Shown here piece after piece: positions 1 to 54,429 of a stretch of 64,000 bases of DNA. Origin of the DNA: Candidatus Aminicenantes bacterium. GTDB taxonomy: Bacteria; Acidobacteriota; Aminicenantia; Aminicenantales; Saccharicenantaceae. The stretch is from NCBI GenBank assembly GCA_963742235.1, contig CAVULT010000005.1, forward strand, positions 36,508-100,507. The letters run 5' to 3'. The notes under the pieces were generated by a model that saw only the letters and a list, made by a program, of their open reading frames with translations, was not told the origin of the DNA and made no database searches. Position 1 is the stretch's first letter. The number at the start of each line of letters is the position of its first letter. A program made the translations under genes and the position numbers.

Positions 1-1321
1 GGTCTTCAGGTCCTGGAGATAGAGGTCGGCGGCCGGGCGGCCGATCGTCCGGGCCATCGCGTACTTCGACCACTCCGCGACGTAGGCGACCGGCGCCGCG
101 CTTGACCGGCGTCACCTCTTCGTTGACCGGGTCGTTCCCGAGCTGGACGAACGCGCCCGCATCGAGATGCCAGGCCGCCTCCATGTTGCGTTTGCGGAGC
201 TGGGCCGTGTTGTTCTTCTGATACGGCATCACGAGCACGTCTTTCGAGTGCCAGACCTCGACGGTCGACGGCTCCTCGGCGGGTGTCTTGGGCGGACCCG
301 TTTCGCTCTTGGCCGCGGGAGCGGGCTTCTCCTCCCACTTGGCGATGCCGAAGAACAAGGTCCGGCCGTCATCCGACCAGGAGAGCGGGCGGTAAGGGAC
401 GGTTCTCAAGCCGGCGGGAAAGCCCTTGTCCGCGGTGGGGTCGTAGGAGCGCTGGCGCTCGCTCCCGCCGATCCCCGTCCAGGCCATGATCAAGTGGGTC
501 GGACCGTCGCGGTGATCATCGGTCTTCGTCCGGAACACGGCCAGGTCCGGAGCGTTCTTCCGCCAGGCGAGGCCGGCGTAGATCGAGGCGGACGAATCGA
601 GCACCCGAAGGACGCCGGTCGCCGCATCGAAGAGCTGGACGCCGTTTCCGGCCTTGCCCTCCGCGCTGATGGCCAGGGCGATCAGATGGCTGAGCTCGGC
701 GTCCTGCCAGGCAAATTGAGAGACGTTGCCGAAAGCTACGTCTCTGCCGGAGGCGAGGTTTCTCACGACGACCTGGGTTCCGGGCTTTTCCTCGTCCGCG
801 TCAGAGGCGGCGGCGCCGCCGCCGCCGCTCCCCTCGCGCGGTCCGGCCGGGGGCGCAGGGGCGTAGTGATCCATGGCCAGGAAGGCGCCGTCGCGGCTGA
901 AGGCGAACGATTCGACGTCATCGACGATCGTCGTCCCGCCCGACCCGAGGTCGAGCAGGCCGAGCTTGTTGTGGACCGGCTTCTTGTCTTTTTTCAGCTT
1001 CTCCTGGTCGGCCTCGGACATGCCGATGGAGTAGGCGACCCATTTCGAATCCGAGGAAAACACGGGCTGCCCGCCGAATGCGGCGACTTTGACCGTGCCG
1101 TCGGCCAGCTTCAGGATCCGCAGCTCGTTATTGCGGTCGGAGCGGTTGATCCCGTACGCGAGCCAGCGGCCGTCCGGAGAGAGACCGCCGTGGGCGCCGG
1201 GCCGGGCCAGGCTCTCCCATTGACCGAAATCGGCCGGAGTCGCCGGCTTCTTGGTCTGAGCGCCGGCCGTGATCGACAGGATCAAGAGGATCCCGAGAAT
1301 GGCGGCTGAAGTGCGTTTCAT
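1..1321 (-). CDS. Secreted beta-propeller protein, S9/TolB-like peptidase N-terminal part; gene continues beyond the left window edge
   Basis: This ORF is not in the track because it has no stop inside the window. ATG at 1321-1319 is followed by signal peptide MKRTSAAILGILLILSITAGAQT, and the frame stays open to the edge. It has repeated propeller-blade motifs (SPDGRWLAY, SDSKWVAY, SRDGAFLA, SDDGRTLFF). The + ORF 167..1309 is its antisense shadow. The frame appears to slip by 1 nt near 91-100. Confidence 0.6.
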   Translation of the reverse strand, partial: MKRTSAAILGILLILSITAGAQTKKPATPADFGQWESLARPGAHGGLSPDGRWLAYGINRSDRNNELRILKLADGTVKVAAFGGQPVFSSDSKWVAYSIGMSEADQEKLKKDKKPVHNKLGLLDLGSGGTTIVDDVESFAFSRDGAFLAMDHYAPAPPAGPREGSGGGGAAASDADEEKPGTQVVVRNLASGRDVAFGNVSQFAWQDAELSHLIALAISAEGKAGNGVQLFDAATGVLRVLDSSASIYAGLAWRKNAPDLAVFRTKTDDHRDGPTHLIMAWTGIGGSERQRSYDPTADKGFPAGLRTVPYRPLSWSDDGRTLFFGIAKWEEKPAPAAKSETGPPKTPAEEPSTVEVWHSKDVLVMPYQKNNTAQLRKRNMEAAWHLDAGAFVQLGNDPVNEEVTPVKRGAGRLRRGVVEVRDGPDDRPPGRRPLSPGPED

Positions 1322-1427: not shown

Positions 1428-2822
1428 ATGCTTGAGGCCAAGGCGGACGTCGATATGGGACCTGAAAAGAACAACCCGGTCGTGGATTCCCCTCTCCACA
1501 TTCTCGTCGTGGACGACGAGCTCAACATCCGGAAAACGCTGACGGTGTGTCTCGAGACGGAAGGCCACAAAGTCACCGCCGTCAGCAACTTTCAAGACGC
1601 CATGGCCGAGGCCTCGCGCAGGTCCTTCGATCTCGCCTTCGTCGACCTCAGGTTGGGCATGGATGACGGCCTCGACCTCATCCCGGCCCTTCTGGCCGCC
1701 ACGCCCTGGCTCAAGATCATCGTCATCACCGCCTATGCGTCCATCGATACGGCCGTCGAAGCCATCCGGCGAGGGGCCGCCGACTACATTCCCAAGCCGT
1801 TCACGCCGGCCCAGATCAACCTGGCGGTCCGGAAGGTGTTCGAGGTCCGTTCCCTGGAGCGGAAGGTCGCGGCGCTCCAAGAGGACCTTGGGCGCCAGCG
1901 TCCCGAGATCGACTTCTCGAGCTCGAGCCCCCGGATGCAGAGGGCCGTGAACATGGCCCGCCAGGCCGCCGCCTCCGAAGCCACGATCCTTCTCAGCGGC
2001 GAGAGCGGAACAGGCAAAACCGTCCTGGCCCGGGCCATCCATTCCTGGAGCAGCCGGGCGGACAAGTCGTTCAGCCTCATCTCTTGCCCTTCCTTCCCTC
2101 CCGAGCTGCTGGAAAGCGAGCTCTTCGGGCATGTGAAGGGAGCCTTCACGGGGGCCTTCCGCGACAACCCCGGCCGCATCGCGGCGACCGACGGCGGGAC
2201 GTTATTTCTGGATGAGATCGGCGACCTGCCGCTCCCCCTCCAGCCGAAGCTCCTGCGTTTTGTCCAGGAAAGGGAATTCGAGCGCATCGGCGACACCGTC
2301 ACGCGAAAAGCGGACGTGCGGCTGATCGCGGCCACGAATACGAACCTGGCGGAGGCGGTCAAGGAAGGCCGGTTCCGGGAAGACCTCTATTTCCGCCTCA
2401 GCGTGATCCCGATCGAGATCCCTCCCCTCCGTGAGAGACCGGACGATGTCCCCATCCTGGCGGAACGCCTCTTGGCCTTCCACGCCCGGAACAACCACCG
2501 CTCGTTCCTGGGATTCAAAGATGATGCGCTTCGGACGCTGACCGCCTACTCTTGGCCGGGGAACCTCAGGGAATTGAGCAATGCCATCGAACGCGCGGCC
2601 ATCCTCTGCCCGGCCGACCGCATCGGCCTCGAATGTCTTCCGGCGAATCTCTCTCCGGGAGGCGCCGAGGTCAAGATCGGCGATCCTGTGAGCCTCGACA
2701 AGGTCGAGGAAGCTCATATCCGGCGAGTTCTGGCGGACTCCAAATCCCTTCGCGAAGCGGCTGATATCCTCAGAATCGACCAAGCCACTCTCTGGCGACG
2801 CCGAAAACAGTACGGTCTCTGA
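1428..2822 (+). CDS. Sigma-54-dependent response regulator (NtrC family: REC + AAA+ + Fis-type HTH)
   Basis: REC domain (ILVVDDE...DLAFVDLRLG). AAA+ domain with Walker A GESGTGKT and the GAFTGA sigma-54 contact loop. C-terminal HTH (LREAADILRIDQATLWRRRKQYG). The track ORF opens at TTG 1419; ATG 1428 (or 1455) is the more likely start. Confidence 0.9.
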   Translation: MLEAKADVDMGPEKNNPVVDSPLHILVVDDELNIRKTLTVCLETEGHKVTAVSNFQDAMAEASRRSFDLAFVDLRLGMDDGLDLIPALLAATPWLKIIVITAYASIDTAVEAIRRGAADYIPKPFTPAQINLAVRKVFEVRSLERKVAALQEDLGRQRPEIDFSSSSPRMQRAVNMARQAAASEATILLSGESGTGKTVLARAIHSWSSRADKSFSLISCPSFPPELLESELFGHVKGAFTGAFRDNPGRIAATDGGTLFLDEIGDLPLPLQPKLLRFVQEREFERIGDTVTRKADVRLIAATNTNLAEAVKEGRFREDLYFRLSVIPIEIPPLRERPDDVPILAERLLAFHARNNHRSFLGFKDDALRTLTAYSWPGNLRELSNAIERAAILCPADRIGLECLPANLSPGGAEVKIGDPVSLDKVEEAHIRRVLADSKSLREAADILRIDQATLWRRRKQYGL

Positions 2823-2826
2823 TAGT

Positions 2827-2872
2827 TGCATTTTTCAATGGGCTTATCCGGAGATGTCTTGATGAATGCAAA
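2827..2872 (+). promoter_or_regulatory. Inverted repeat TTGCAT-N34-ATGCAA, candidate enhancer (UAS) for the sigma-54 activator
   Basis: TTGCAT at 2827-2832 and ATGCAA at 2867-2872, inside an unusually AT-rich gap about 70-110 nt upstream of the -24/-12 element. This is a positional argument only. Confidence 0.2.
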
Positions 2873-2907
2873 CTCCCCATCCATGATGGTTCAACTATAA
2901 TATTCAT

Positions 2908-2920
2908 TATCAATCAGTTA
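2908..2920 (+). promoter_or_regulatory. IHF-like bending site
   Basis: TATCAATCAGTTA fits WATCAANNNNTTR. It lies between the candidate UAS and the -24 element, the usual place for IHF at sigma-54 promoters. Confidence 0.3.
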
Positions 2921-2935
2921 ATAACACGATGATCC

Positions 2936-2951
2936 TGGCATGAGTCTTGCT
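2936..2951 (+). promoter_or_regulatory. Sigma-54 (-24/-12) promoter reading into the histidine kinase and kdp genes
   Basis: TGGCAT(2936-2941)-N5-TTGCT(2947-2951) has the exact GG/GC spacing of TGGCAC-N5-TTGCW. It lies 26 nt upstream of the kinase ATG, in a 150-bp AT-rich gap directly after a sigma-54 activator gene. Confidence 0.6.
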
Positions 2952-2976
2952 TTATTGGGAGCCTGAGGAAACCATT

Positions 2977-4815
2977 ATGCTTGGACTTCGCCAAAAAATC
3001 TCCCTGGGATTCAGCGCGCTCCTGGTCATCATCATCGTCATCGGTACCCAGAGTATTCTCCATCTGTCCAAGCTGGGCGCTTCGATCGACGTCATCCTGC
3101 GCGAAAATTACCGGAGCGTCATCGCCTGCCAGCAGATGAAGGAAGCGCTGGAGCGCATCGACAGCGGGGTTCTTTTCGTTCTTCTCGGCCATGCCCGGGA
3201 GGGGGACGAGCTCGTCCGCAACAATCAGGCCGCCTTCGAAAAGGCCCTCCAAGTCGAGCTCAGCAACATCACCCTCCCGCCCGAGGGAGAAAAAGCCGCC
3301 CGGCTGCGGGACCTTTTCGGACGCTATGAAACCCTTTTGAAAGACGTCGTCGATCCGGCCCAATCCCCGGATCTCCGGAGCCGGACCTATTTCATGAACC
3401 TCCTGCCCCTGTTCGGGCAGATCAAGAACCAGGCCGACGAGATCCTGCAGCTGAACCAGCAGAACATGAGCGACGCCAATGACCGCGCTCGCCGGAGCGC
3501 CGCATCCGCCAGAAGGCAGATGTATGTTTTTCTGTCCGTCGGCACGGCTCTGGCCGTCGTCTTCATCTTTTTCACCGGAAGATGGATCCTCCGGCCGATC
3601 CACCGCCTCATCCGGTCGGCGGACGAGATCCGGCGCGGCAACCTGGATCTCGTCGTGGCCGCCGATTCCCGGGACGAGATCGGGCACCTCTCGAAAGCGT
3701 TCAACGCCATGGCCGCAAGCCTGCGGGAGTTCCGGAGGACGGACCAGGCCAAGCTCCTCCGCATCCAAAGGGCCACGCAGCAGGCCTTCGACAGCCTTCC
3801 CGATGCGATCGCCGTCATCGACGCGGAGGGGCGGGTCGAGGTGGCCACGGAATCTGCGAGGACCGTCTTCGGGCTGAGACCCGGGGTGGCCGTCGAGGAC
3901 CTGACGTTCGCGTGGATGGCCGATCTCTGGCGGGACGCGCGTCAGGACGGCCGCAACGCATTTCTCGAAGGCCAGAGGTCCATCCAGCAATTCGTCGGGG
4001 GCGAAGAACGTTACTATCGCCCCGAAGCGGTGCCGATCCTGGATAGCGAACGCCTGACGACCGGCGTGATCCTTGTCCTCAAGGATGTCACCCAGCTCCG
4101 GCAGCAGGACGAGATCAAGAGGGGCGTCGTCCGGACCGTGTCGCATCAATTGAACACCCCGCTCACGTCGGTGCGCATGGCCATCCATCTGCTTCTCGGC
4201 GAGAAGGTCGGCGCCCTGAACGAGAAACAGGCGGAGCTTCTGATGTCGGCCCGCGAGGACAGCGACCGCCTTCACGATATCCTCAACAGCCTGCTCGATC
4301 TCAGCCGCTTCGAATCGGGCAGGGCCCTGATGGAATTCCAGTCCCTCACCCCGCGGTCGATCGTCATGGATGCCGTTGAGTCCGTCCGCCGGACCGCCCA
4401 GGATCGCGGGGTGGCTCTCGAGGCCGACGTCCCGAGCGATCTTCCCGAGGTCTGGGCCGACACGACCCGGATCGGCCACGTCTTCAGCAACCTCCTCTCG
4501 AACGCGCTCAGGCATACCTCTCCCGGCGGCCGGATCGCGCTCGCCGCCGAGGCCGATGATGCCGCAGTCCGTTTTCATGTCTCCGACTCGGGCGAGGGCA
4601 TCCCGGAGGAGTTCCTGGCCAGGGTCTTCGAGCCCTTCTTCCGGGTCCCCGGCCGCCTGAACGAGAACGGGGCGGGGCTCGGGTTGGCCATCGTCAAGGA
4701 GATCGTCGAGGCCCACGGCGGGACCGTCGGCGTGGAAAGCAGCGAGGGCAACGGATCGACCTTCACGTTCACTCTGAGAAGGGCTGACCGGTTCCCGAAA
4801 GAAGAGGCCGCCTGA
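2977..4815 (+). CDS. Sensor histidine kinase, KinB-like (four-helix-bundle sensor, TM, HAMP, PAS, HisKA, HATPase_c)
   Basis: RBS GAGGAA precedes ATG 2977; the track start at 2947 would overlap the promoter. HAMP (ILRPIHRLIRSADEIRRGNLD...DEIGHLSKAFNAM). H-box SHQLNTPLTSV. G-boxes DSGEGIP and GAGLGLAIV. Confidence 0.9.
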   Translation: MLGLRQKISLGFSALLVIIIVIGTQSILHLSKLGASIDVILRENYRSVIACQQMKEALERIDSGVLFVLLGHAREGDELVRNNQAAFEKALQVELSNITLPPEGEKAARLRDLFGRYETLLKDVVDPAQSPDLRSRTYFMNLLPLFGQIKNQADEILQLNQQNMSDANDRARRSAASARRQMYVFLSVGTALAVVFIFFTGRWILRPIHRLIRSADEIRRGNLDLVVAADSRDEIGHLSKAFNAMAASLREFRRTDQAKLLRIQRATQQAFDSLPDAIAVIDAEGRVEVATESARTVFGLRPGVAVEDLTFAWMADLWRDARQDGRNAFLEGQRSIQQFVGGEERYYRPEAVPILDSERLTTGVILVLKDVTQLRQQDEIKRGVVRTVSHQLNTPLTSVRMAIHLLLGEKVGALNEKQAELLMSAREDSDRLHDILNSLLDLSRFESGRALMEFQSLTPRSIVMDAVESVRRTAQDRGVALEADVPSDLPEVWADTTRIGHVFSNLLSNALRHTSPGGRIALAAEADDAAVRFHVSDSGEGIPEEFLARVFEPFFRVPGRLNENGAGLGLAIVKEIVEAHGGTVGVESSEGNGSTFTFTLRRADRFPKEEAA

Positions 4816-4898
4816 TGATCGACGCGCTCTTTGTTCTGCTGACGGTTCTATTCTTCGGCCTGTGCGCGCTCTACGCCAGGGCCTGCGAAAGGCTTTGA
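4815..4898 (+). CDS. 27-aa hydrophobic micro-protein, possibly a diverged KdpF-like peptide
   Basis: MIDALFVLLTVLFFGLCALYARACERL. The ATG overlaps the kinase stop (ATGA at 4813-4818). It has one TM helix and the same length and position as kdpF, which starts 3 nt after its stop. It is below the ORF-track size cutoff. Confidence 0.4.
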   Translation: MIDALFVLLTVLFFGLCALYARACERL

Positions 4899-4900
4899 CC

Positions 4901-4984
4901 ATGACCGACATCCTGGGACTGATCGTCGGGATTCTGCTCCTCGGCTATCTTCTGCTGAGTGTCCTGCGGCCCGAGAAGTTCTGA
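4901..4984 (+). CDS. kdpF: K+-transporting ATPase subunit F
   Basis: MTDILGLIVGILLLGYLLLSVLRPEKF. This is a single TM helix with the characteristic GYL...LLRPEKF C-terminus, immediately upstream of kdpA. Confidence 0.75.
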   Translation: MTDILGLIVGILLLGYLLLSVLRPEKF

Positions 4985-4997
4985 CGAGGTGACGACG

Positions 4998-6717
4998 ATG
5001 GACCTTTACGGCTGGCTTCAACTGGCCCTCTTCCTCGGCCTCCTCGTAGTGGTCACGAAGCCCCTGGGTCTCTACCTCATCCGGGTCCTCGAGCCCGAGG
5101 GCAGGACTTGGCTCGACCGCCCGGTCAAGCCCGTCGAGCGCCTCCTCTACCGGATCCTCGGCGTCGACCCGAAGACGGAGCAGGACTGGAGGCAATACAC
5201 CCGGTCCCTCATCGTCTTCAGCCTGGCCGGGCTGCTGTTCACGTACGCCGTGCTCCGGCTCCAGCATCTTCTCCCGTTGAATCCCCAGAAATTCGGACCC
5301 GTCGGGCCCGACCTCGCCTTCAACACCGCGGCCAGCTTCACCACCAACACGAACTGGCAGAATTACGCGGGGGAATCCACACTGTCCTACTTTTCGCAGA
5401 TGGTCGGGCTCGTTTTCCATAACTTTGTCTCGGCGGCGGCCGGCATCGCGGCGGCCGCGGCTCTGGTGCGGGGGATCGCCCGGCATTCGGCCAGGACGAT
5501 CGGGAATTTCTGGGTCGACGTCGTCCGCATCAACCTCTATCTCCTGCTTCCCTTCTCGATCGTCTTCTCGCTCTTCCTGACGTCGCAGGGGGTGATCCAG
5601 AACTTCAAGCCTTCCGTCAGGGCCACGACGGTCGAGAGCGCGGCCCGGACAGGCCATCGCCCAGGGCCCGGCGGCTTCCCAGGTGGCCATCAAGATGCTC
5701 GGAACGAACGGCGGCGGTTTCTTCAACGCCAACGCCGCCCATCCCTACGAGAACCCGACGCCCCTCTCGAACTTCCTCCAGATGCTCTCCATCCTCCTCA
5801 TCCCGAGCGGACTCACCTATTACCTCGGACGCAAGGTCAAGAACCAGAAGCACGGCTGGGCCCTCTGGAGCGCCATGGCCGTCATCTTCGTGGCCGCGGT
5901 GCTTGTCTGCTGGCGGTCCGAGAGCGCGGGCAATCCCCGCCTGCAGGCGCTCGGCGTCGACCCGGCCGGCGGCAACATGGAAGGCAAGGAGGTCCGCTTC
6001 GGCGTTTTCGACTCGAGCCTGTTCGCCACCGTCACGACCGCCGCCTCGTGCGGAGCGGTCAACGCCATGCACGACTCGTTCACGCCGCTCGGCGGCTTGG
6101 TCCCGCTCGTCAACATCCAGCTGGGCGAGGTCGTCTTCGGCGGGGTCGGTTCGGGCCTGTACGGGATGCTCGTCTTTGTCATCCTGGCCGTCTTCCTCAC
6201 CGGCTTGATGGTCGGACGGACGCCCGAGTATCTGGGCAAGAAGATCGAATCCTATGACGTGAAGGTCTCCGTCCTGGCCTTGCTCGTCCTGATCTTCTCG
6301 ATCCTCGGGTTCTCCGCCTGGGCCGCGACCAGCCGGTTGGGCCTGGCCGGGCTCGCCAACTCCGGCCCGCACGGCTTGAGCGAGATCCTCTACGCTTTTT
6401 CCTCCGGCACGGGCAACAACGGCAGCGGCTTCGCGGGCCTTGACGGCAACACGCCCTTTTATAACATCACCCTGGCTCTGGCCATGCTCTTCGGCCGGTT
6501 CATCATGATGGTTCCTGTCCTCGCATTGGCCGGGAACATGGCCCGGAAAAAGCTCGTCCCGCCGAGCGAAGCGAGCTTCCCCGCGAGCGGCCCGACGTTC
6601 GTCATCATCCTCATCGGGACCGTCCTCATTGTCGGCGCCCTGACCTTTCTGCCGGCCCTGGCCCTCGGTCCCATCGTCGAGCATCTCCTGATGACCGGAT
6701 CCGGGGTCCTGTATTAA
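4998..6717 (+). pseudogene. kdpA: K+-transporting ATPase subunit A, interrupted as sequenced by a 1-nt frameshift near 5641-5647
   Basis: RBS GAGGTG precedes ATG 4998. The N-terminal half lies in the frame of ORF 4959..6257 (MDLYGWLQLALFLGL...[13 protein letters not shown]). It continues in the frame of ORF 5683..6717 ([29 protein letters not shown]...). Both halves are collinear with KdpA. Confidence 0.9.
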
Positions 6718-6728
6718 GGGAGGATGAC

Positions 6729-8750
<2,022 letters not shown>

Positions 8751-8771
8751 CATGAGGAAGGACGCACGGAA

Positions 8772-9365
8772 ATGAAAGACTGGCTGGCCGAACTCAGGAG
8801 GTCGTTCCTGGCCGTGGCCGTCCTGGCCGTCATCCTGTGCGGCCTCTACCCGCTCGTGACCTGGGTCCTCGCTCAAGGCATCTTTCCCGGCCGGGCCAAC
8901 GGCTCGCTCATCGTGCGGGACGAAGTCGTCGCCGGGTCGAGCCTGATCGGCCAGGAGTTTGCGTCCCCGAAGTATTTTCACCCGCGCCCTTCGGCGGCCG
9001 GGAAGGGATACGACGGCGGCCGGTCCGGGGGGACGAACCTCGGGCCCTTATCGAAGGACCTCGTGGAGACTGTCCTCAGGCGGACAACCGAGTACCGGAA
9101 GGAAAATGGGCTCGCCGACGCGACTCCGGTGCCGGTCGACGCCGTCACGGCCTCGGGGAGCGGGCTCGACCCCCATATCTCTCCGGAAAACGCCCGGCTC
9201 CAGGCCTCCCGCGTGTCGAGAGCCCGGGGCCTCGCGGAGGACGTGGTCCTGGCCCGGATCAAGGCCTGCACCGAAGGCCGCACGCTGGGCATCCTGGGCG
9301 AGCCGCGGGTGAACGTCATGCGTTTGAACCTGGCCCTCGACGGAGTCTCCGATGCCGGAAGATAG
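8772..9365 (+). CDS. kdpC: K+-transporting ATPase subunit C
   Basis: N-terminal TM helix, with typical KdpC motifs (SGSGLDPHISPENARLQ, GILGEPRVNVMRLNLAL). Confidence 0.95.
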   Translation: MKDWLAELRRSFLAVAVLAVILCGLYPLVTWVLAQGIFPGRANGSLIVRDEVVAGSSLIGQEFASPKYFHPRPSAAGKGYDGGRSGGTNLGPLSKDLVETVLRRTTEYRKENGLADATPVPVDAVTASGSGLDPHISPENARLQASRVSRARGLAEDVVLARIKACTEGRTLGILGEPRVNVMRLNLALDGVSDAGR

Positions 9366-11031
9366 GGCCGACGCGTTCTTGCGGATGATCCGCCGGGCCC
9401 AGCGGGGGCGCCTGAAGATCTTCCTCGGCTACTCGGCCGGCGTCGGCAAGACCTATCAGATGCTCCAGGAAGGCCACCGGCTCAAGAGCGAGGGCATCGA
9501 CGTCGTCATCGGCCTCCTCGAAACGCACGGCCGGGCGGACATCGCCCGGCTGGCCGAAGGCCTCGAGGTCGTTCCCCGCCGCGTCCAGGAGTATCACGGC
9601 ATCGCCATCGAGGAGATGAACGCGGAAGCGGTCATCGCCCGCAAGCCCCAGCTGGCCCTGATCGACGAGCTGGCTCATACGAATGTCCCGGGCAGCCGGA
9701 ACGCCAAGCGGTACGAGGACGTCCTGGATATCCTGGCCGCGGGGATCCACGTCATCAGCACGCTCAACGTCCAGCACCTGGAAAGCCTCTACAACATCGT
9801 GGAGACGGCCGTCGGGGTCAAAGTCCGCGAACGTCTCCCGGATTCCATCCTGGCCGAGGCGGATGAGATCGTCGATGTCGACCTCGCGACCGACGACCTC
9901 CGGAAGCGCCTCGAGGAAGGGAAGATCTACCCGGCCGAGCGGATCGAAGCCGCGCGGGCCAACTTTTTCATAAGGTCCAACCTGGAAAAGCTGCGCGAGC
10001 TGACGCTTCGCGAGCTCGCCGCGCAGATCGACCTGCGCCGGCGCGAGGCCCAGGGGGCGGAGGGCGGCGCGGCCTCGGACCAGGTCATGGTCTGTCTGAG
10101 CTCGCACGGGCCGAACAGCGAGAGGCTGCTGCGCTACGGCTCCCGTCTGGCCGGAAAATTCAACCGAAACTGGTACGCCGTCTACGTCCAGACGCCGTCC
10201 GAGGAGGCCACGGTCATCGACGCTCAGGTCCAGCGCCATCTCTCGGACACGCTGACGCTGGCCAAACAGCTCGGGGCCATGGTCTTCACCTACAAGGGCG
10301 AGGACATCGCCGACACCATCCTCCGGTTCGCGGCGGAATACAGGGTCGGACACATCGTCGTGGGCAAGGCCTCCACGAGGCCTCTCTGGAAGCGGCTGGG
10401 CCGGAACAAAACGATCGTCGAGGACCTGATCAGGAACGCCCGTAACGCCACGGTCATCGTCCTGGATACGTGCCAGGCCCTGCCGGGATCCGTCCGTTCT
10501 CAACCCGAGATCCCGGAAGAAGCTTCCCCCGTCGGGCCGGCTGAGGGACCAAGTCTCCAGCCGGTCGACCGCCCTCGCCTGAGCCTCCTGTCGTCTCCCC
10601 GGCACATCGTGATCTGGGAGACGGCCGTCGAAAAGGAGACCGTTCTCAGGACCCTGGCCGCGACGGTCGCGAGGGAAGCCGGAAGCGAGTCCGCGGAGAG
10701 TGTTTTCGAGGCCATCATGAAACGGGAAGCCCAGGGCTCGACGTTTTTCAACGAGGGCGTGGCCTTCCCCCATGTCCGCGTGGAGGGATTGGCCGCTCCG
10801 GCGATCGCCCTGGGGTTGACGAGAGAGGGGGTCATCGACGTGGCGACCGACAAGCCCATCGAGATCGTCTTCCTCATCCTGTCACCGGCCCAAACCCCCG
10901 AGACACAGGTCAAGCTTCTGGGCCTGGTCAGCCGGGCTGCCCAGAACAGGTCGCTCATGCAGGCCCTGCGGTCCGTCCGGACGCCGGAAGAGGCCATGCG
11001 CGCGATCCGCGAATGGGAGACGTCGGCGTGA
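9352..11031 (+). CDS. KdpD N-terminal sensor domain + Usp domain fused to a PTS EIIA type-2 (EIIA-Ntr-like) domain; no TM region and no kinase core
   Basis: aa 18-225 match KdpD-N (KIFLGYSAGVGKTYQML, IDELAHTN). aa 243-372 match Usp (VMVCLSSHG...HIVVGK). aa 408-556 match the EIIA type-2 pattern, with the candidate phospho-His in GVAFPHVRVEG (His474, nt 10771-10773). The start overlaps the kdpC end. Confidence 0.85.
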   Translation: MPEDRADAFLRMIRRAQRGRLKIFLGYSAGVGKTYQMLQEGHRLKSEGIDVVIGLLETHGRADIARLAEGLEVVPRRVQEYHGIAIEEMNAEAVIARKPQLALIDELAHTNVPGSRNAKRYEDVLDILAAGIHVISTLNVQHLESLYNIVETAVGVKVRERLPDSILAEADEIVDVDLATDDLRKRLEEGKIYPAERIEAARANFFIRSNLEKLRELTLRELAAQIDLRRREAQGAEGGAASDQVMVCLSSHGPNSERLLRYGSRLAGKFNRNWYAVYVQTPSEEATVIDAQVQRHLSDTLTLAKQLGAMVFTYKGEDIADTILRFAAEYRVGHIVVGKASTRPLWKRLGRNKTIVEDLIRNARNATVIVLDTCQALPGSVRSQPEIPEEASPVGPAEGPSLQPVDRPRLSLLSSPRHIVIWETAVEKETVLRTLAATVAREAGSESAESVFEAIMKREAQGSTFFNEGVAFPHVRVEGLAAPAIALGLTREGVIDVATDKPIEIVFLILSPAQTPETQVKLLGLVSRAAQNRSLMQALRSVRTPEEAMRAIREWETSA

Positions 11032-11068
11032 GGTCCGGGGATCGAACGGATTTCCGACTGGAGGCAAC

Positions 11069-11851
11069 ATGACACTCAAAAAGAAATTGAGCCTGGGCCT
11101 GGGGTTCCTCTTCCTGATCATCTTTGTCCTGGCGTTCGTCTGTTCCTATTATATCGGCGAGCTCTCGCGGGACGCCGGGAACATCCTGAAGGACAACTAT
11201 AAGTCCCTCGTCTTCTCCAGGAACATGATCGCGGCGCTCGAGGACACTCGGACGGCTGTCACCAGCATCGTCTTCAATCCGGCCGATGACCAGAAGACGT
11301 CCGACTACTTCATGAAGCTCTTCGAGGCCGGCCGGACTGAATTCGAGAACAGCCTCAAGTCCGAAAACGGCAACATCACCGAGATCCACGAAAGCGAATA
11401 CGTGGCCACGGTCAACCAGGTCTATGTCTTGTACGCCAACCTCGGCCTCCGGCTGATCAAGGGAGAGGGCGGCCGGGCCCTTTATTTCAACGAATACCAG
11501 CCGGCCTTCGAAAAGCTCTCCCAGGCCATCAATGCCATCAACGATCTTAACATGCAGGCGGTCGAGCGGAAGAGCCGGATGGCCAAGGATGATTCCGTCA
11601 GGATCATCCGCCTCATGGCCCTGATCGGGGTCTTTGGCCTCATCCTGGCGTTCGGCTATTTCTGGTACTTCCCCTTCTACATCTCCAACACGATCGCCTA
11701 TCTCGCGGAAAGAATGAAAACGCTCCTCGAAAAATCCGGCATCGTCCTCGACATCAAGACGAACGACGAGGCCTTCGTCATTCTGCAGGGGATCAACCTG
11801 TTGGAGAGCAGACTCGGGCTGAAGGACAAGGGGGAAGCGCAAGAGCGATGA
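11069..11851 (+). CDS. Membrane sensor module (four-helix-bundle sensor, 2 TM, HAMP-like segment) with no output domain; paralog of the N-terminus of kinase 2977..4815
   Basis: The N-terminus MTLKKKLSLGLGFLFLIIFVLAF...ILKDNYKSLVFSRNMIAALE parallels MLGLRQKISLGFSALLVIIIVIG...ILRENYRSVIACQQMKEALE of the kinase. The second TM is followed by a HAMP-like PFYISNTIAYLAERMK...NDEAFVILQGINLLESRL, and the protein then ends. Confidence 0.7.
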   Translation: MTLKKKLSLGLGFLFLIIFVLAFVCSYYIGELSRDAGNILKDNYKSLVFSRNMIAALEDTRTAVTSIVFNPADDQKTSDYFMKLFEAGRTEFENSLKSENGNITEIHESEYVATVNQVYVLYANLGLRLIKGEGGRALYFNEYQPAFEKLSQAINAINDLNMQAVERKSRMAKDDSVRIIRLMALIGVFGLILAFGYFWYFPFYISNTIAYLAERMKTLLEKSGIVLDIKTNDEAFVILQGINLLESRLGLKDKGEAQER

Positions 11852-12221: not shown

Positions 12222-14267
12222 CTATTTCTTGTCCGGTAGGGCAGCGGCCCGATCGACGGCGGCGGCCAGGTCCCTGAGGGTCAGGGGTTTCATGACGACC
12301 TCGCTCACGCCTGCCTCCCGGAGGGAATCCTCGTCGACCGACTTGCTGTAGCCCGTGGTCAGGATGATCGGAAGGTCGGGGCTGATCCTCCGCAGCTTAG
12401 CGGCCAGCTCGAGGCCGCTCATTTGGGGCATGGTCTGATCGACGACGGCCAGGTCGAAATTCTGGGGCCCGGTGCGGAAAAGCGCCAGCGCCCCGGCGGC
12501 GTTCCTGACCGCTGTCGGCTTATGACCAAATGATTCCAGGGCCCGCCGCATGGTATCGAGGACCATATCTTCGTCGTCGACGAGGAGAATGCGCCGGCTC
12601 TGGACGGCAGGGCCCCTGTCCCGAGCCCGGCGATCGCCCGCCGGCGCGACCTCGTCCGCCGTCGGGAGATAAACGCTCACGTCGGTCCCGCGGCCCACGC
12701 CGCTCTCGACGGTGATGGCCCCCCCATGGCTTTTGACGATCCCGTGGACGACCGAAAGCCCGATCCCCGTTCCCTTGCCCGCCTCCTTGGTCGTGAAAAA
12801 AGGATCGAAGATCCGATCGAGATTCTGGGGCGGTATGCCGCAGCCCGTATCTTTGACCGTCAGCCTCACGTAGGGCCCCGGGGGGACGTCGAGGAGAAAG
12901 TCTTTCGCGTCAAGATCGACGCTGGCGAGCGAAACCTCCAGGACCCCGCCCCGCTCGGCCATGGCGTCGACGGCGTTCGCGCACAGGTTGGTGACCAGCT
13001 CGTGGATCTCCGTCGGGTCTCCGCTCACTGTATCCTTAGGTTTATCCGCAACATAGCGCATCTCGATCGAGGCCGGCAAGGACGGCTTGATGAGCGTCAA
13101 GGCTTCGTCGACGACGGGTTGGATGCGGATGGCCCGGAGGTTCTGCTTCGTTTGGCGGGTGAACGACAGGATCTTCTTGACCAGGTCCCTCTGGCGGTAG
13201 GCCGCCTGGAGGATATTCTTCAGCATCGCGTGGTTCGGGGTGCCCGGTTCCGTCTCGCCGAGGAGCAGCTCGGCATTGACGACGATGGGCAGGAGGATGT
13301 TGTTCAGGTCGTGGGCGACGCCGCCAGCCAGCCGTCCGAGGGCCTCGGTGCGTTCCATCTGGCGAATCGTCTGCTCGAGCTTCATGGCGTGCGTGACATC
13401 GCGGAAGAAGACGATATAGCTCGAGATGGCCCCGGTTTGGCTCCTCAGGGGGACCACGGAGACATCCAGATCGATGGGCTTCCCGTCTTTCCGGATCCTG
13501 CCGACGTGGCCTTTCCAAATCCCCTCATTCGCGAGGACTCTCCTGACGTCTGCGACGGTCTCCGCTCCGAATCGTTCCTGGCCGGTTCCGACAAGCTCGC
13601 TGTCCGCGTACCCCGTGATCTTTTGGCAGGCCGGATTGGCGTAGATGATCTCTCCGGCCGGGTTCAGGATCATGACGCCGTCGACGGCCTGGGAAACCAC
13701 GGCCGCCAACCGCGTCAGCTCCTCCTGCGTCCGCTTTTGCTCGGTCATGTCGGCGATGACGCCGGACAGGGCGCGGATGCCTTGGATCGACATGGGCGCA
13801 AGGGACAGACGGGCCTGGAGGCGTCCGCCGGACGCCTTGAGGAATTCCACATCCGCGCGAGCGGTTTCTTTTTCGGCCTTGGCCACGAGCCGCTCCAGGT
13901 CTTCCAGAGCTGACGGCGCCGCCCGGCTGAAGAGGTTGTCCCCAAGGAGCTCCTCCAGGGAGACGTCCAGCATGGCCGCGAATTGCCTGTTGGCATAGAT
14001 AATGAAACCGTCGGGGCGGATGGTCACGGTCCCTTCGCCCATATTTTCGACGATCATCCGATAGGGGCGATCGGCGTCCTTCAGGGTATAGACCTGGTCG
14101 CCGAGCGGCCCCTTGATGACCAGGGCATCGACTTCGCCCATGCGAATGGCGTTCAGGCTCTCTTCGGCCTCCTCCAGGCGCCGCCTGAGCGCGGCGGTCT
14201 CGCGACGAGGACTGTCCAGGTCGAGGGCCTGATCCGTCACCGGCCGTCCCGCTTTCGATCCAGCCAT
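12222..14267 (-). CDS. Hybrid sensor histidine kinase (coiled coil, 2 PAS, HisKA, HATPase_c, C-terminal receiver)
   Basis: H-box GGVAHDLNNIL. G-boxes DTGCGIP and GTGIGLSVV. Receiver ILLVDDE...LAVVDQTMPQMSG...KP. RBS GGAGGA. It is the last gene of the kai operon. Confidence 0.9.
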   Translation of the reverse strand: MAGSKAGRPVTDQALDLDSPRRETAALRRRLEEAEESLNAIRMGEVDALVIKGPLGDQVYTLKDADRPYRMIVENMGEGTVTIRPDGFIIYANRQFAAMLDVSLEELLGDNLFSRAAPSALEDLERLVAKAEKETARADVEFLKASGGRLQARLSLAPMSIQGIRALSGVIADMTEQKRTQEELTRLAAVVSQAVDGVMILNPAGEIIYANPACQKITGYADSELVGTGQERFGAETVADVRRVLANEGIWKGHVGRIRKDGKPIDLDVSVVPLRSQTGAISSYIVFFRDVTHAMKLEQTIRQMERTEALGRLAGGVAHDLNNILLPIVVNAELLLGETEPGTPNHAMLKNILQAAYRQRDLVKKILSFTRQTKQNLRAIRIQPVVDEALTLIKPSLPASIEMRYVADKPKDTVSGDPTEIHELVTNLCANAVDAMAERGGVLEVSLASVDLDAKDFLLDVPPGPYVRLTVKDTGCGIPPQNLDRIFDPFFTTKEAGKGTGIGLSVVHGIVKSHGGAITVESGVGRGTDVSVYLPTADEVAPAGDRRARDRGPAVQSRRILLVDDEDMVLDTMRRALESFGHKPTAVRNAAGALALFRTGPQNFDLAVVDQTMPQMSGLELAAKLRRISPDLPIILTTGYSKSVDEDSLREAGVSEVVMKPLTLRDLAAAVDRAAALPDKK

Positions 14268-15022: not shown

Positions 15023-16786
15023 TCAGACCCTCCTTCTCGGCTCGCGCTTCCCGTCTGCGGGCTTCTCCGCGCTTTCTCCGTCCGCCTTCCGGCTCTTGGC
15101 CATGATCTCCCGATCTTCGTCTTGAACCCGAAGACCGTTCTTGGCGTAAGCAAGCTTCTGCCGGAGGTCGGTTTCGTCTCTCTCCACCTCGCCGCGGAGC
15201 CTGGCGATCTGGGCCTCGGCCTCGACGCGTTTTCGCTTGACGTCGGCTTCAAGCCGCTTGATCTCCCGCTGCTGCAAGCGTATCAGGTTCCTGTCTTCCG
15301 CTTCGCGAGAAGCCCGGGCTGAGCCGGTGAGGACGCCGGACGGCCCGAGGTAGACGTCGAGGAGGTCGATGCCCTTCGAGGACAGCACGAACTCGCGGAT
15401 CTGGTTCGAATGGGCCATGCCCCGTGATTTCAGGATATAGATGCCGCGGTTGCGCTCGCCGCCGATCTCGATATCCCTCAAAAAGATCCAAGTATCGGCC
15501 AGGGACGAGATGGAGACGGTTGTGGACTCGAGGTTCTCTCCCCCGGGCGTCAGGCTCGTGAACAGGCCCGTGGCGCCCCTGTTCTTCAGGAACGTGGAGA
15601 AGCGCATCAGCATGAGACGGACATCTCGCGTTGTCGCCACGGTCGTGAAGTTCGAGAGCGGATCCATCACCACGACCTTGGGGTCGAGGTCTTCGATTTG
15701 GCGCTGCATTGTGACGAGATGGGTCTCCAGTCCGTAGACGGTCGGGCGCGGCGCGTAGAACTTGAGCAGGCCTTTCTTGATGCAACGGTCAAGGTCGATG
15801 CCGATGGACTTCATATTCCGCATGACCTGGCCGGGGGATTCCTCGAACGTCAGGAAGACCGCGCGCTCTCCTCTGGCGCAGGCCGCTTCGACGAATTTGG
15901 CCGCGATGCTCGTTTTCCCCGTGCCGGCCGTCCCGGAGACGAGGATCATGCTGCCGCGATAGTAGCCCTTCCCGCCCAGCATGGCGTCGAGCCGCGGGAT
16001 GCCCGTTGAAACACGCTCCCGGCTCGCCGGGCGCTCGGAGTAGGCCAGGGAGGTGACGGGCAGGACCGAGATGCCGGTATCGGTGATGAGGAAGGGATAC
16101 TCGTTCGTGCCATGGGACGAGCCCCGGTATTTCAGCACTCGCAGACGGCGCGTCGGGACCTGGTCTTCCATCCTGTGGTCGAGAAGGATGACGCAGTCGG
16201 AGACGTATTCCTCGAGTCCCTCCCGGGTGAGGTGGCCGTTGCCGGCCTCCGCGGTGATGACGCTGGTCATCCCCTTTTCCTTGAGCCAGCCGAACAGGCG
16301 GCGCAGCTCCGCCCGGAGGATGCCGGCATTGGGCAAGCCGGCGAAAAGCGATTCGAGGGTGTCGAGGACGACGCGCTTGGCCCCGACCGATTCGATGGCG
16401 TGGTTGAGCCGGATGAACAGGCCCTCGAGGTCGTATTCGCCCGTTTCCTCGATCTCGTGGCGCTCAATCCTGACGTGGTCGATGACCAGCTTCTTCGTCG
16501 CCGCGAGCTTGTTCAGGTCGTAGCCGAGGGACTTGACGTTGGCCGCCAGCTCCTCCCCCGTCTCCTCGAAGGCCATGATGACGGCCGGCTCGTTGTATTC
16601 GGCGGCGCCCTTGACGGCGAATTCGATGCCCATGAGCGTCTTCCCCGTTCCAGGGGTGCCGACGATGAGGGTCGTCCGGCCGCGCGGGAATCCGCCGTCC
16701 GTCACTGCGTCGAGGCCTCGGATGCCTGTTGCGGCCTTTTCGAGGCCGGGGCCGAGAGCGCCTGCATTGGGTTTCTTCTTCGCCAT
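15023..16786 (-). CDS. kaiC: KaiC homolog (double RecA/P-loop domains) with a roughly 100-aa C-terminal coiled-coil extension
   Basis: Two Walker A motifs (GTPGTGKT, GTAGTGKT). Catalytic EE pairs (AFEETGEE, TFEESPGQ). The segment VSISSLADTWIFL is equivalent to the S/T phosphosite region. RBS GGAAGGAGAAAG precedes ATG 16786; the track start at 16873 is an over-extension. Confidence 0.9.
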   Translation of the reverse strand: MAKKKPNAGALGPGLEKAATGIRGLDAVTDGGFPRGRTTLIVGTPGTGKTLMGIEFAVKGAAEYNEPAVIMAFEETGEELAANVKSLGYDLNKLAATKKLVIDHVRIERHEIEETGEYDLEGLFIRLNHAIESVGAKRVVLDTLESLFAGLPNAGILRAELRRLFGWLKEKGMTSVITAEAGNGHLTREGLEEYVSDCVILLDHRMEDQVPTRRLRVLKYRGSSHGTNEYPFLITDTGISVLPVTSLAYSERPASRERVSTGIPRLDAMLGGKGYYRGSMILVSGTAGTGKTSIAAKFVEAACARGERAVFLTFEESPGQVMRNMKSIGIDLDRCIKKGLLKFYAPRPTVYGLETHLVTMQRQIEDLDPKVVVMDPLSNFTTVATTRDVRLMLMRFSTFLKNRGATGLFTSLTPGGENLESTTVSISSLADTWIFLRDIEIGGERNRGIYILKSRGMAHSNQIREFVLSSKGIDLLDVYLGPSGVLTGSARASREAEDRNLIRLQQREIKRLEADVKRKRVEAEAQIARLRGEVERDETDLRQKLAYAKNGLRVQDEDREIMAKSRKADGESAEKPADGKREPRRRV

Positions 16787-16872
16787 CGTCTTTCTCCTTC
16801 CCTCAGCGCCCATTGCGGCCGAGAAGAAAAGGGCCCCGTAAATGACGAGCTGGAGCCGGATACGGTAGGCCA

Positions 16873-16901
16873 ACTATATTCCGGGCCTTGGACAGAGTCA
16901 A
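16873..16901 (-). promoter_or_regulatory. Sigma-70-type promoter for the kai operon
   Basis: On the minus strand, TTGACT (16901-16896), a 17-nt spacer, then TATAGT (16878-16873). It lies about 85 nt upstream of the kaiC ATG. Confidence 0.45.
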
Positions 16902-30840: not shown

Positions 30841-32020
30841 ATGAACTTCGTCGCCGACCTGGACGTCAAAGGCAAGCTCGTCTTCCTCCGCGTCGATTTC
30901 AACGTCCCGCTCGACGATAAGGGCGGGATCCGCGACGACACGCGCATCCGCGCCTCCCTGCCCACGATCATCTGGCTCCTCGATCACGGCGCCCGCCTGG
31001 TCATCGCCTCCCACCTCGGGCGGCCCAAGGGCAAGGTCGACCCGGCGATGAGCCTCCGCCCGGCCGCGCAAAGGCTGGCCGAGCTCATCCCGAACAAGGT
31101 CGTCATGGCCCCCGACGTCGTCGGCGACGAGGTCGGGCGGCTCAAGAGCGCCCTGGGCGAGGGCGAAGCGCTCCTCCTCGAGAACGTCCGGTTCTACAAG
31201 GAGGAGGAGAAGAACGACCCGGAATTCGCCAGGAAGCTGGCCGAGGACATCGACATCTTCGTCAACGACGCCTTCGGCTCGAGCCACCGGGCCCACGCCT
31301 CGGTCGTCGGCATCGCCGACTTCGTTCCGCTCACGGCCGCCGGCTACCTGATGAAAAAGGAGGTCGAGTACCTCAAGAAGGCCATCCACACCCCGGTCAA
31401 ACCGTACGTGGCCATCCTCGGCGGGGCCAAGGTGTCGGACAAGATCGAGATCATCGAGAGCCTCCTCGGCAAGGCCGACCAGCATCCTGATCGGCGGCGC
31501 CATGGCCTACACCTTCCTGAAGGCCCAGGGTCTGGGCGTCGGCACCTCTCTCGTCGAGAACGACCAGCTCGAAGTGGCCCTGGTCATCCTGGACAAGGCC
31601 CGGACGAACGCGGTCAGCTTCCACCTGCCCCAGGACCACCTCCTGGCCAAGGCCGCGGCGGCCGGGGCGATCACGAAGGTCGTGGAAACCTTGCCCTTCC
31701 CCGAGGACATGATGGGCGTCGATATCGGTCCCAAGACCGTCGACGCCTACGCCGCGGTCATCGCCACGGCCAAGACCATCTTCTGGAACGGCCCCATGGG
31801 CATCTTCGAGATCGACGAGTTCGCCAAAGGGACGATCGGCGTCGCCAAGGCCGTGGCGGCCTCGGGCGCCGTCTCCATCGTCGGCGGCGGGGACTCGATC
31901 GCCGCCGTGAAGAAGGCCGGCGTTGCGGACAGGATCAGCCACCTCTCGACGGGCGGCGGGGCCTCTCTCGAGTACATCGCCTACGAGACCCTGCCCGGCA
32001 TCACCGCCCTGGAGAAGTAG
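30841..32020 (+). pseudogene. pgk: Phosphoglycerate kinase, interrupted as sequenced by a 1-nt insertion near 31480-31484
   Basis: The N-terminal 213 aa lie in the frame of ORF 30841 (...VAILGGAKVSDKIEIIESLLGKADQ). The protein continues in the frame of ORF 31502..32020 (ILIGGAMAYTFLKAQG...STGGGASLEYI). Removing one base restores a collinear Pgk of about 393 aa. Confidence 0.9.
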
Positions 32021-33207: not shown

Positions 33208-33291
33208 GCCGAAGTGGTGGAATTGGCAGACACGCTAGCTTGAGGGGTTAGTTCCCGCAAGGGATTGGGGGTTCGAGTCCCCCCTTCGGCA
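33208..33291 (+). tRNA. tRNA-Leu, anticodon GAG (long variable arm; CCA not encoded)
   Basis: Acceptor GCCGAAG/CTTCGGC. Anticodon stem CTAGC/GTTAG with loop TTGAGGG. Variable arm TTCCCGCAAGGGATTG. T arm GGGGG-TTCGAGT-CCCCC. Nearly collinear with E. coli leuU. Confidence 0.9.
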
Positions 33292-54280: not shown

Positions 54281-54296
54281 TGCAAAGAACATGCCA
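54281..54296 (-). promoter_or_regulatory. Sigma-54 (-24/-12) promoter candidate upstream of the Ser/Thr kinase gene
   Basis: On the minus strand, TGGCAT(54296-54291)-N5-TTGCA(54285-54281), with consensus spacing. It lies in the 258-bp intergenic gap, about 110 nt upstream of ATG 54171. Confidence 0.5.
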
Positions 54297-54429
54297 GAGG
54301 CGGCCGCGGCGGCCTCCCCTGTTGCCGGGCCCCGTGGCCTGCAGGCGCCGGCGGTCTCCTTAAGGTCCTTTACGCCATTTATTTACACTGCGGGGGTTCA
54401 AGCAGACAGGAAGGGGTCAGAGCTTGATT

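Follow-up and report, generated by a model that had tools for sequence, protein, structure and literature searches.

In a 64,000-nt stretch of DNA from a Candidatus Aminicenantes bacterium (GenBank assembly GCA_963742235.1, contig CAVULT010000005.1, positions 36,508 to 100,507 of the forward strand; this whole stretch is called the window below), the genes of the KdpFABC potassium pump lie behind a predicted sigma-54 promoter and next to genes for an NtrC-type activator and a membrane histidine kinase. In the textbook system kdpFABC, the bacterial emergency potassium pump, is switched on by KdpD/KdpE. We conclude that the kdp operon of the window is very probably controlled by the sigma-54 promoter and the adjacent activator/kinase pair rather than by KdpD/KdpE. 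The regulator, its predicted sites and the sigma-54 promoter are assigned to kdp control because they are linked to the pump genes across distant lineages and because the promoter layout is fixed within a few bp. The G+C content of the window is 65%. Its nearest public relatives are metagenome-assembled genomes (MAGs) of Candidatus Aminicenantes (phylum Acidobacteriota), with 91% (locus L001) and 89% (locus L039) identity in the short KdpD protein.

The gene order on the plus strand is NtrC-type regulator, a 154-nt gap, histidine kinase, a micro-open reading frame (micro-ORF), kdpF, kdpA, kdpB, kdpC, a KdpD-N/Usp/EIIA protein and a protein that consists of a four-helix-bundle (4HB) domain only. 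An earlier note, made by reading the sequence, had given this order for positions 1428 to 11851, and every gene was located where it had been placed. The same note had stated that the window encodes no OmpR-family KdpE and no full-length KdpD. We found neither an OmpR-type regulator (Trans_reg_C) nor a full-length KdpD among the window ORFs scanned by Pfam, i.e., those of coding-type composition, which leave some stretches of the window uncovered. The KdpD-like protein is short and ends in an EIIA domain, and no KdpE-type neighbour is present among the ORFs scanned, so that a canonical KdpD/KdpE system is not seen.

Predicted promoter region and the activator/kinase pair

The regulator and kinase genes and the predicted elements between them are as follows.

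1428-2822, plus strand: NtrC-type response regulator, a sigma-54 enhancer-binding protein (Pfam Response_reg, Sigma54_activat with E 3e-65, AAA_lid_14 and HTH_8)
2826-2838: predicted activator site 1, TTGCATTTTTCAA, imperfect palindrome TTGCA-N3-TGCAA, centre at about -130 from the predicted start
2859-2871: predicted activator site 2, TTGATGAATGCAA, imperfect palindrome TTGCA-N3-TGCAA, centre at about -97
2908-2920: IHF-like site TATCAATCAGTTA, which fits the IHF consensus WATCAANNNNTTR at every position; it is embedded in AT-rich DNA that separates the activator sites from the promoter
2936-2951, plus strand: predicted sigma-54 promoter TGGCAT-N5-TTGCT, with GG at 2937-2938 and GC at 2949-2950
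2977-4815, plus strand: membrane sensor histidine kinase, first gene of the predicted operon (Pfam 4HB_MCP, HAMP, PAS, HisKA and HATPase_c)

The -24/-12 element had been pointed out in the earlier note, and it occurs far above the level expected by chance: the motif TGGCAYN5TTGCW has two matches in the 64 kb compared to 0.04 expected, and none of 100 shuffled sequences reached two. The predicted transcription start is at about 2961-2963, which gives a 15-nt leader, and a ribosome-binding site (GAGGA) is located at 2965-2969. For the upstream part of the gap the note had reported TTGCAT-N34-ATGCAA. TTGCAT (2826-2831) and ATGCAA (2866-2871) are indeed separated by exactly 34 nt, but the two do not form a single inverted repeat; they belong to two tandem 13-bp palindromes, the predicted activator sites, whose centres are 33 bp apart (three helical turns).

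The regulator has a receiver domain, an AAA+ domain and a Fis-type helix-turn-helix, and its GAFTGA loop is intact (GHVKGAFTGAF), in agreement with its description as an NtrC-type activator. Its start codon is ATG 1428 or ATG 1455. Searches against NCBIfam gave generic matches of the NtrC/AtoC class only, all under the cut-offs. Regulator orthologs with 56 to 91% identity adjoin kdp genes in about 100 loci, and the kdp-linked regulator of a Syntrophobacter MAG (locus L072) is 68% identical. The regulator gene is upstream of the sigma-54 promoter and outside the predicted operon, and no correctly spaced GG-N10-GC element that could serve as its own sigma-54 promoter was found in 1323-1428.

The kinase is laid out as transmembrane helix, periplasmic four-helix bundle, transmembrane helix, HAMP, PAS, HisKA (H-box SHQLNTPL) and HATPase_c. 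It had been called KinB-like; this label was dropped, as the best NCBIfam matches are generic (PnpS, WalK and PhoR) and all are under the cut-offs. Kinase orthologs with 40 to 88% identity hold the same locus position.

A second consensus sigma-54 promoter (CTGGCATGTTCTTTGCA, 54281-54297, minus strand) is found about 110 nt upstream of a gene for a Ser/Thr protein kinase-TPR protein (1076 aa, 50941-54171, minus strand). This second -24/-12 site suggests a wider sigma-54 regulon in the organism. Together with the GAFTGA activator it implies that rpoN is present in the genome.

Conservation of the locus in related genomes

Two sets of loci were used for comparison. The first came from a search with the short KdpD in which each species was represented by a single genome; it gave 309 relatives, the best 80 of which were examined; 48 of the loci (the window included) have a complete regulator-kinase intergenic region, in which up to two mismatches were allowed for the -24/-12 element and for the activator sites. 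The second set was retrieved via the regulator of the Syntrophobacter MAG and provided 70 loci for promoter analysis and 57 non-duplicate loci with enough flank for synteny. It spans Hydrogenedentota, Chlorobiaceae, Deferribacteraceae, Planctomycetota, Fibrobacteria, Nitrospirales, Latescibacterota and others.

Wherever the contigs of the first set are long enough, the order is regulator, kinase, (micro-ORF), kdpF, kdpA, kdpB, kdpC and short kdpD. Altogether some 120 related loci, spread over more than 10 phyla, have the same activator and kinase flanking kdpFABC and the short KdpD, and the linkage is found in Aminicenantes, Thermodesulfobacteriota, Hydrogenedentota, Krumholzibacteria, Chlorobiaceae, Deferribacteraceae, Planctomycetota, Fibrobacteria, Nitrospirales and others. 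Among the 57 loci of the second set, the kinase is present in 44, kdpB in 42 and the short KdpD in 41, with EIIA on the short KdpD in 34.

Conservation of the -24/-12 element upstream of orthologous loci had been named in the earlier note as a check on the proposed promoter. The element is carried by 45 of the 48 loci of the first set (1.65 in shuffles) and by 55 of the 70 loci of the second set. The pair of TTGCA-N3-TGCAA sites occurs at a fixed distance in 36/48 loci, compared to 0 in shuffles, and in 40/70 loci of the second set. Measured from the -24 element, the paired sites begin 106-111 bp and 74-78 bp further upstream; the element itself is found 38-51 nt before the kinase start codon in most loci.

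Departures from this arrangement were also noted. Loci L242, L243, L249, L251 (Chlorobiaceae), L254 and L279 are rearranged: regulator, kinase and short KdpD occur without kdpABC between them, or the pump genes diverge from the regulator gene. The divergent orientation is that of L254 and L279, and some loci of the second set have kdpABC elsewhere. In some loci of the Thermodesulfobacteriota type, which include the long intergenic regions of L062-L070, the promoter is right behind the regulator gene and an extra ORF precedes the kinase. One example is L067, where the promoter directly follows the regulator gene and a secreted-looking ORF of about 200 aa (2787-3515) is located between the sigma-54 promoter and the kinase. 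A short KdpD without EIIA is encoded beside the same regulator and kinase in L209, L211, L244, L253, L259 and L279.

Operon structure, kdpFABC and the micro-ORF

The genes downstream of the kinase, all on the plus strand, are listed below.

4815-4898, plus strand: micro-ORF, hydrophobic peptide of 27 aa (MIDALFVLLTVLFFGLCALYARACERL), conserved, directly before kdpF
4901-4984, plus strand: kdpF (TIGR02115, 31.7 bits, above the 26.85 cut-off; PF09604, E 1.6e-8)
4998-6717, plus strand: kdpA, whose two parts are in different frames owing to one inserted nucleotide at the C-run 5644-5646
6729-8750, plus strand: kdpB, P-type ATPase subunit (Pfam E1-E2_ATPase and Hydrolase)
8772-9365, plus strand: kdpC (PF02669, E 3e-67)
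9352-11031, plus strand: KdpD-N/Usp/EIIA protein, 559 aa (PF02702, E 1e-88; PF00359, PTS_EIIA_2, E 1e-21)
11069-11851, plus strand: sensor-only paralog of the four-helix-bundle domain of the kinase, 260 aa, two transmembrane helices, no output domain

As had been remarked before, consecutive genes overlap or nearly abut. In the sequence TGATGA at 4813-4818 the kinase stop codon overlaps the micro-ORF start (TGATG), kdpC overlaps the kdpD-like gene by 14 nt, and from the kinase through the short kdpD all neighbouring genes overlap or are at most 22 nt apart. Terminator-like sites are at chance level (11 compared to 9.2 expected), and a scan with Rfam found no riboswitch, for cyclic di-AMP (c-di-AMP) or other, in the leader or the locus. 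Given the tight spacing, the chance level of terminator-like hairpins and the lack of Rfam elements in the locus, one transcript from the kinase to the short kdpD is the simplest reading.

The micro-ORF (84 nt) is too short for standard gene callers and matches no Pfam or NCBIfam family. We collected 54 complete 27-codon copies, 52 of them distinct in DNA and always just ahead of kdpF. The pairwise differences per site are 0.37, 0.28 and 0.59 at codon positions 1, 2 and 3, respectively, a signature of a translated and selected peptide. Residues D3 and F14 are invariant, and the conserved motif is FFGLC-x-LYARACERL. A second KdpF was considered for this peptide and discarded, since neither PF09604 nor TIGR02115 matches it.

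In kdpA, Pfam KdpA positions 2-206 are matched in one frame and positions 219-548 in the next. Alignment with L001, L039 and L003 shows CC in the relatives and one extra C at 5644-5646 in the window. Programmed frameshifting was ruled out, as the relatives are in frame at this site. The phosphoglycerate kinase gene (pgk) of the window is also frameshifted (at about 31480-31500), with its N-terminal half at 30841 to about 31490 and its C-terminal half at about 31480 to 32020. Since pgk is split as well and related MAG loci give fragmented matches, the kdpA lesion is probably an indel error of the assembly and not gene decay. KdpB retains the TGES motif (ITGESAPV in the translation).

The output-less sensor paralog that had been described at the end of the gene order is a 4HB-only protein with 26% identity over 167 aa (E 8e-12) to the sensor domain of the kinase. 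It is found downstream of the short kdpD in only five close relatives and is on this ground considered lineage-specific; it may fall outside the conserved module.

The short KdpD with a fused EIIA domain

The protein encoded at 9352-11031 has no transmembrane, GAF or histidine-kinase part and matches the KdpD model (895 positions) only at positions 10-372. Residues 7-370 score 350 bits with NF038185 (KdpD-like non-kinase potassium sensor), under the cut-off of 550. The Walker A motif GYSAGVGKT (G-x5-GKT) and the Walker B motif IDELAHTN are present, and the G, the GKT and the DE are invariant in 79/79 orthologs. In the C-terminal domain, the best solved homologs are all PtsN. E. coli PtsN (1A6J) aligns with E 3e-13, with GIAIPH against GVAFPH and His73 of PtsN against His474, which is invariant in 79/79 orthologs. 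TIGR01419 gives 56.5 bits compared to a cut-off of 138.7. By these sequence comparisons the C-terminal domain is classed as a PtsN-like domain fused to a short KdpD, not as a PtsN ortholog. EIIA is an optional add-on within the short-KdpD family, as the same regulator and kinase occur with short KdpDs that do not carry it.

KdpD has an atypical serine kinase in its N-terminal domain; the target is Ser162 of KdpB, in the TGES motif, and its phosphorylation inhibits the pump, an activity shown in E. coli and Deinococcus; short KdpDs without the histidine kinase do only KdpB phosphorylation and are typical of species that mostly lack KdpE (Silberberg 2024, PMC11018627). The window protein shares with the short KdpD of Deinococcus geothermalis the KdpD-N domain with G-x5-GKT and DE, the Usp region, the lack of a histidine kinase and the link to a pump whose KdpB has TGES. 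It differs by the extra C-terminal PtsN-type EIIA domain with its conserved phosphorylatable histidine. Because of the invariant G-x5-GKT and D-E residues, the retained TGES motif and the precedent of the 2024 work, we infer that the short KdpD most likely phosphorylates KdpB at the TGES serine, as an atypical serine kinase. KdpD-N and EIIA, named for this protein in the earlier note, are both called by Pfam. The protein is better read as a short-KdpD serine kinase than as a leftover sensor.

The PtsN-like fold and the aligned, invariant histidine suggest that a relay of the phosphotransferase system (PTS) type regulates the short KdpD via its EIIA domain. The control signal could therefore be PTS phosphorylation instead of, or besides, c-di-AMP. 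E. coli PtsN (EIIA-Ntr) reportedly stimulates the kinase activity of KdpD, a finding ascribed to Luttmann and colleagues in 2009, and ptsN lies in the rpoN operon of Proteobacteria. The window thus has in common with E. coli a PtsN-type EIIA coupled to KdpD, potassium homeostasis and a sigma-54 link. E. coli PtsN, however, is a free protein of 160 aa whose partner is the KdpD histidine kinase, whereas the EIIA domain of the window is fused to a short KdpD and has a different partner. We are less sure of the particular role given to the short KdpD and its EIIA domain than of the transcriptional model.

Public records name the relatives of this protein (P0002-P0120) as PTS sugar transporter subunit IIA (NCBI) or two-component system sensor histidine kinase KdpD (JGI). 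Both names are misleading: there is no transporter and no histidine-kinase domain.

Comparison with known kdp systems

Control of kdp by sigma-54 has been described before, contrary to the view in the earlier note that no mechanistic account was known. In Desulfovibrio vulgaris, DNA-affinity-purified chip (DAP-chip) experiments identified the operon DVU3334-3339.1 (kdpFABC), to which the gene for the sigma-54-dependent regulator DVU3334 belongs, as a target of this regulator, with a peak upstream of kdpF, and KdpD was described as "split into two ORFs", DVU3336 (potassium sensor and Usp) and DVU3335 (Rajeev 2011, PMC3333781). The DVU3334 site was predicted as CGTTACATTTTGTAACG at -149 (GTTACA-N3-TGTAAC), and for the Syntrophobacter fumaroxidans ortholog Sfum_2622 a site CGTTTCATTTTGAAATGT was predicted 173 bp upstream of the kinase gene Sfum_2621 (PMC3333781). 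A later sigma-54 regulome lists DVU3334 (GAFTGA) with DVU3339.1-DVU3337 under "potassium uptake" (Kazakov 2015, PMC4641369). The core idea is thus already published, and the window is a further case, in another phylum, of kdp control by sigma-54 and an NtrC-type regulator.

The DVU3334-DVU3339.1 and Sfum_2622-Sfum_2621 systems have several features in common with the window: an NtrC-type GAFTGA regulator, a separate PAS histidine kinase, a KdpD-N/Usp protein without a kinase domain, kdpFABC in the same cluster, and a predicted palindrome about 100 to 150 bp upstream of the first gene, its 5-nt arms separated by 3 nt. The order regulator, site, kinase in S. fumaroxidans is that of the window. 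D. vulgaris has kdpFABC, kdpD', kinase and regulator in this order, with the regulator inside the operon, whereas the window regulator is upstream and outside. The half-sites also differ by one base (TTGCA in the window, TTACA in D. vulgaris and TTTCA in S. fumaroxidans). DVU3336 was described as potassium sensor plus UspA with no mention of EIIA, in contrast to the EIIA-bearing window protein. The window belongs to a different phylum (Acidobacteriota/Aminicenantes), and its likeness to DVU3334 is drawn from the published description. An exact scan of genome contigs for the D. vulgaris 17-mer CGTTACATTTTGTAACG returned random genomes among the matches listed. No kdp-related locus among those retrieved carries the published S. 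fumaroxidans site CGTTTCATTTTGAAATGT; a single match was found, in a locus from the random 17-mer scan.

Compared with E. coli KdpD/KdpE, the window has kdpF, A, B and C in common, as well as the KdpD N-terminal/Usp module right after kdpC and two-component control. It differs in having no OmpR-family KdpE among the ORFs scanned and none of the transmembrane, GAF and DHp-CA part of KdpD. Its predicted promoter is of the -24/-12 (sigma-54) type, for which a distant AAA+ activator is needed, unlike that of E. coli kdp. Where E. coli KdpD has four transmembrane helices and GAF, the window kinase combines a periplasmic four-helix bundle with HAMP and PAS.

How kdp is transcribed in species with short KdpD is not discussed by Silberberg 2024 (PMC11018627), and work of this type on KdpDs without the histidine kinase left the question open for species lacking KdpE. 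The window and the roughly 120 related loci point to a dedicated sigma-54 activator/kinase pair with a conserved promoter layout that would fill the role of KdpE in many poorly studied anaerobic phyla. If this is true, it explains kdp transcription in many short-KdpD species without KdpE and extends a mode of control earlier documented only for Desulfovibrio and Syntrophobacter. In the literature searched we found nothing relevant on a KdpD-EIIA fusion or on sigma-54 kdp control outside Desulfovibrio, and no description of the breadth across phyla, the EIIA fusion or the 27-aa micro-ORF. The parts worth pursuing are the EIIA-fused candidate KdpB kinase, the conserved micropeptide and the phylogenetic breadth. 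The analysis provides a motif model for promoter annotation, corrected protein names and two leads, the EIIA fusion and the micro-ORF.

Proposed mechanism and alternative explanations

From the sequence features and their conservation we infer the following functional steps for this organism, including the kind of signal and the role of EIIA. The histidine kinase (2977-4815) would sense a signal via its periplasmic four-helix bundle, its PAS domain or both, and phosphorylate the NtrC-type regulator (1428-2822). The phosphorylated regulator would bind both palindromes, centred at about -130 and -97. With the DNA bent in the AT-rich IHF-like region, it would then consume ATP to convert the sigma-54 closed complex at 2936-2951 into the open one. 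A single transcript would then cover kinase, micro-ORF, kdpF, kdpA, kdpB, kdpC and short kdpD. The kinase would be positively autoregulated since its gene is on the transcript from the sigma-54 promoter. The regulator would not be, since its gene lies upstream of that promoter, and it is presumably made from a promoter of its own further upstream. The need for RpoN and an AAA+ activator, as well as the autoregulated kinase, had been proposed in the earlier note; the conservation counts given above strongly support this wiring, with the correction that autoregulation does not extend to the regulator itself. When potassium is sufficient, the short KdpD (9352-11031) would phosphorylate the TGES serine of KdpB and stop the pump, its activity being set by the Usp region and by the phosphorylation state of the fused PtsN-type EIIA domain.

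A broader proposal, which we offer tentatively and with less than even confidence, is that the KdpD-N/Usp/EIIA protein is a fusion that wires a nitrogen-PTS-type signal into the pump. Phosphorylation of His474 would switch the KdpB-inactivating kinase and/or modulate the partner kinase, and the 27-aa peptide could be an extra subunit of the pump or of the kinase. Together with sigma-54 control this would make up a widespread second Kdp paradigm, found in more than 300 species-level genomes from over 10 mostly anaerobic phyla.

Several points weigh against these readings. The Pfam scan of window ORFs described above found no rpoN and no PTS phosphodonor (EI, NPr/HPr), and in 75 loci the short kdpD is not followed by any conserved gene (HPr/NPr and KdpE were looked for). 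There is no Pfam Usp call in the window protein, whose Usp region comes only from the alignment to the KdpD model; Pfam calls Usp in only some of the short-KdpD orthologs. The IHF-like sequence, noted before, is present as an exact consensus match in the window, but the strict consensus is retained in only 8/48 loci, mostly close relatives, with the region AT-rich in most; it is the weakest element of the promoter layout. The kdpA gene is frameshifted as the sequence stands. The DVU3334 site was predicted from orthologs, without confirmation by electrophoretic mobility shift assay on mutated substrates, it is absent from Table S6, and two further regulators bind the D. vulgaris kdp promoter (PMC3333781). 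The window sites TTGCA-N3-TGCAA are nearer to the validated DVU3305 site (GTTGCA-N3-TGCAAC) than to that of DVU3334, and DVU3305 also binds the D. vulgaris kdp promoter.

The short KdpD/Usp/EIIA protein might instead be the detached sensing half of a split KdpD that controls transcription together with the separate kinase and does not act on KdpB, as Rajeev et al. 2011 (PMC3333781) read DVU3336/DVU3335. Linkage of the short KdpD to the kinase is nearly universal among the loci, and in some rearranged ones (L029, L031, L217, L242-L251 and L263) the two are still neighbours although kdpABC has been relocated. The stimulation of E. coli KdpD by PtsN that is attributed to Luttmann et al. 2009 would also fit an EIIA domain feeding into kinase signalling. 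We nevertheless regard this explanation as rather unlikely: KdpD-N alone is a working KdpB serine kinase and KdpDs without the histidine kinase are reported to do only that (PMC11018627), the catalytic residues of Walker A and Walker B are invariant, and the partner kinase has a complete sensor set of its own (periplasmic bundle, HAMP and PAS) and is itself unrelated to the KdpD C-terminus. The two roles could coexist.

That the sigma-54 promoter serves the kinase only, while expression of kdpFABC depends mainly on a sigma-70 promoter inside the operon or is governed by a canonical KdpD/KdpE pair from another part of the genome, appears improbable for the window. The kinase and micro-ORF genes overlap and the gaps through the short kdpD are small, a simple sigma-70 scan detected no promoter-like site between 2977 and 4998, and the activator family is kdp-linked in 42/57 loci with enough flank; species with a KdpD lacking the histidine kinase are also mostly without KdpE (PMC11018627). 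It gains some weight from other lineages: 400 to 660 bp separate the kinase from the kdp genes in L042, L056 and L074, and kdpABC is found elsewhere in some loci, from which we conclude that separate kdp promoters exist in some lineages. The least probable explanation, and a very improbable one, is a decaying locus in which the kdpA split at 5644-5646 is real and the pump non-functional. Only one base is in excess, and it falls in a homopolymer run; all other genes of the locus are intact and highly conserved, and the housekeeping gene pgk of the window is frameshifted in a similar way. The related MAG loci L004, L008, L011 and L043 likewise give fragmented matches, a pattern typical of long-read indel errors.

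Other features of the window

Upstream of the regulator gene, the ORF at 167-1309 (plus strand) was rejected as a spurious product of high G+C content; the G+C at third codon positions places the real gene on the minus strand at 2-1322. This gene diverges from the regulator gene and has no Pfam match, and a sigma-70-like promoter is located at 1401-1372. The sole Rfam match within the window is a tRNA gene at 33208-33291. Downstream of the kdp locus, on the minus strand between 12222 and 16873, a gene for a KaiC-family ATPase (15023-16873) is found near one for a PAS-HisKA-HATPase-receiver hybrid kinase (12222-14267). The two may form a KaiC-based signalling module outside the cyanobacteria.

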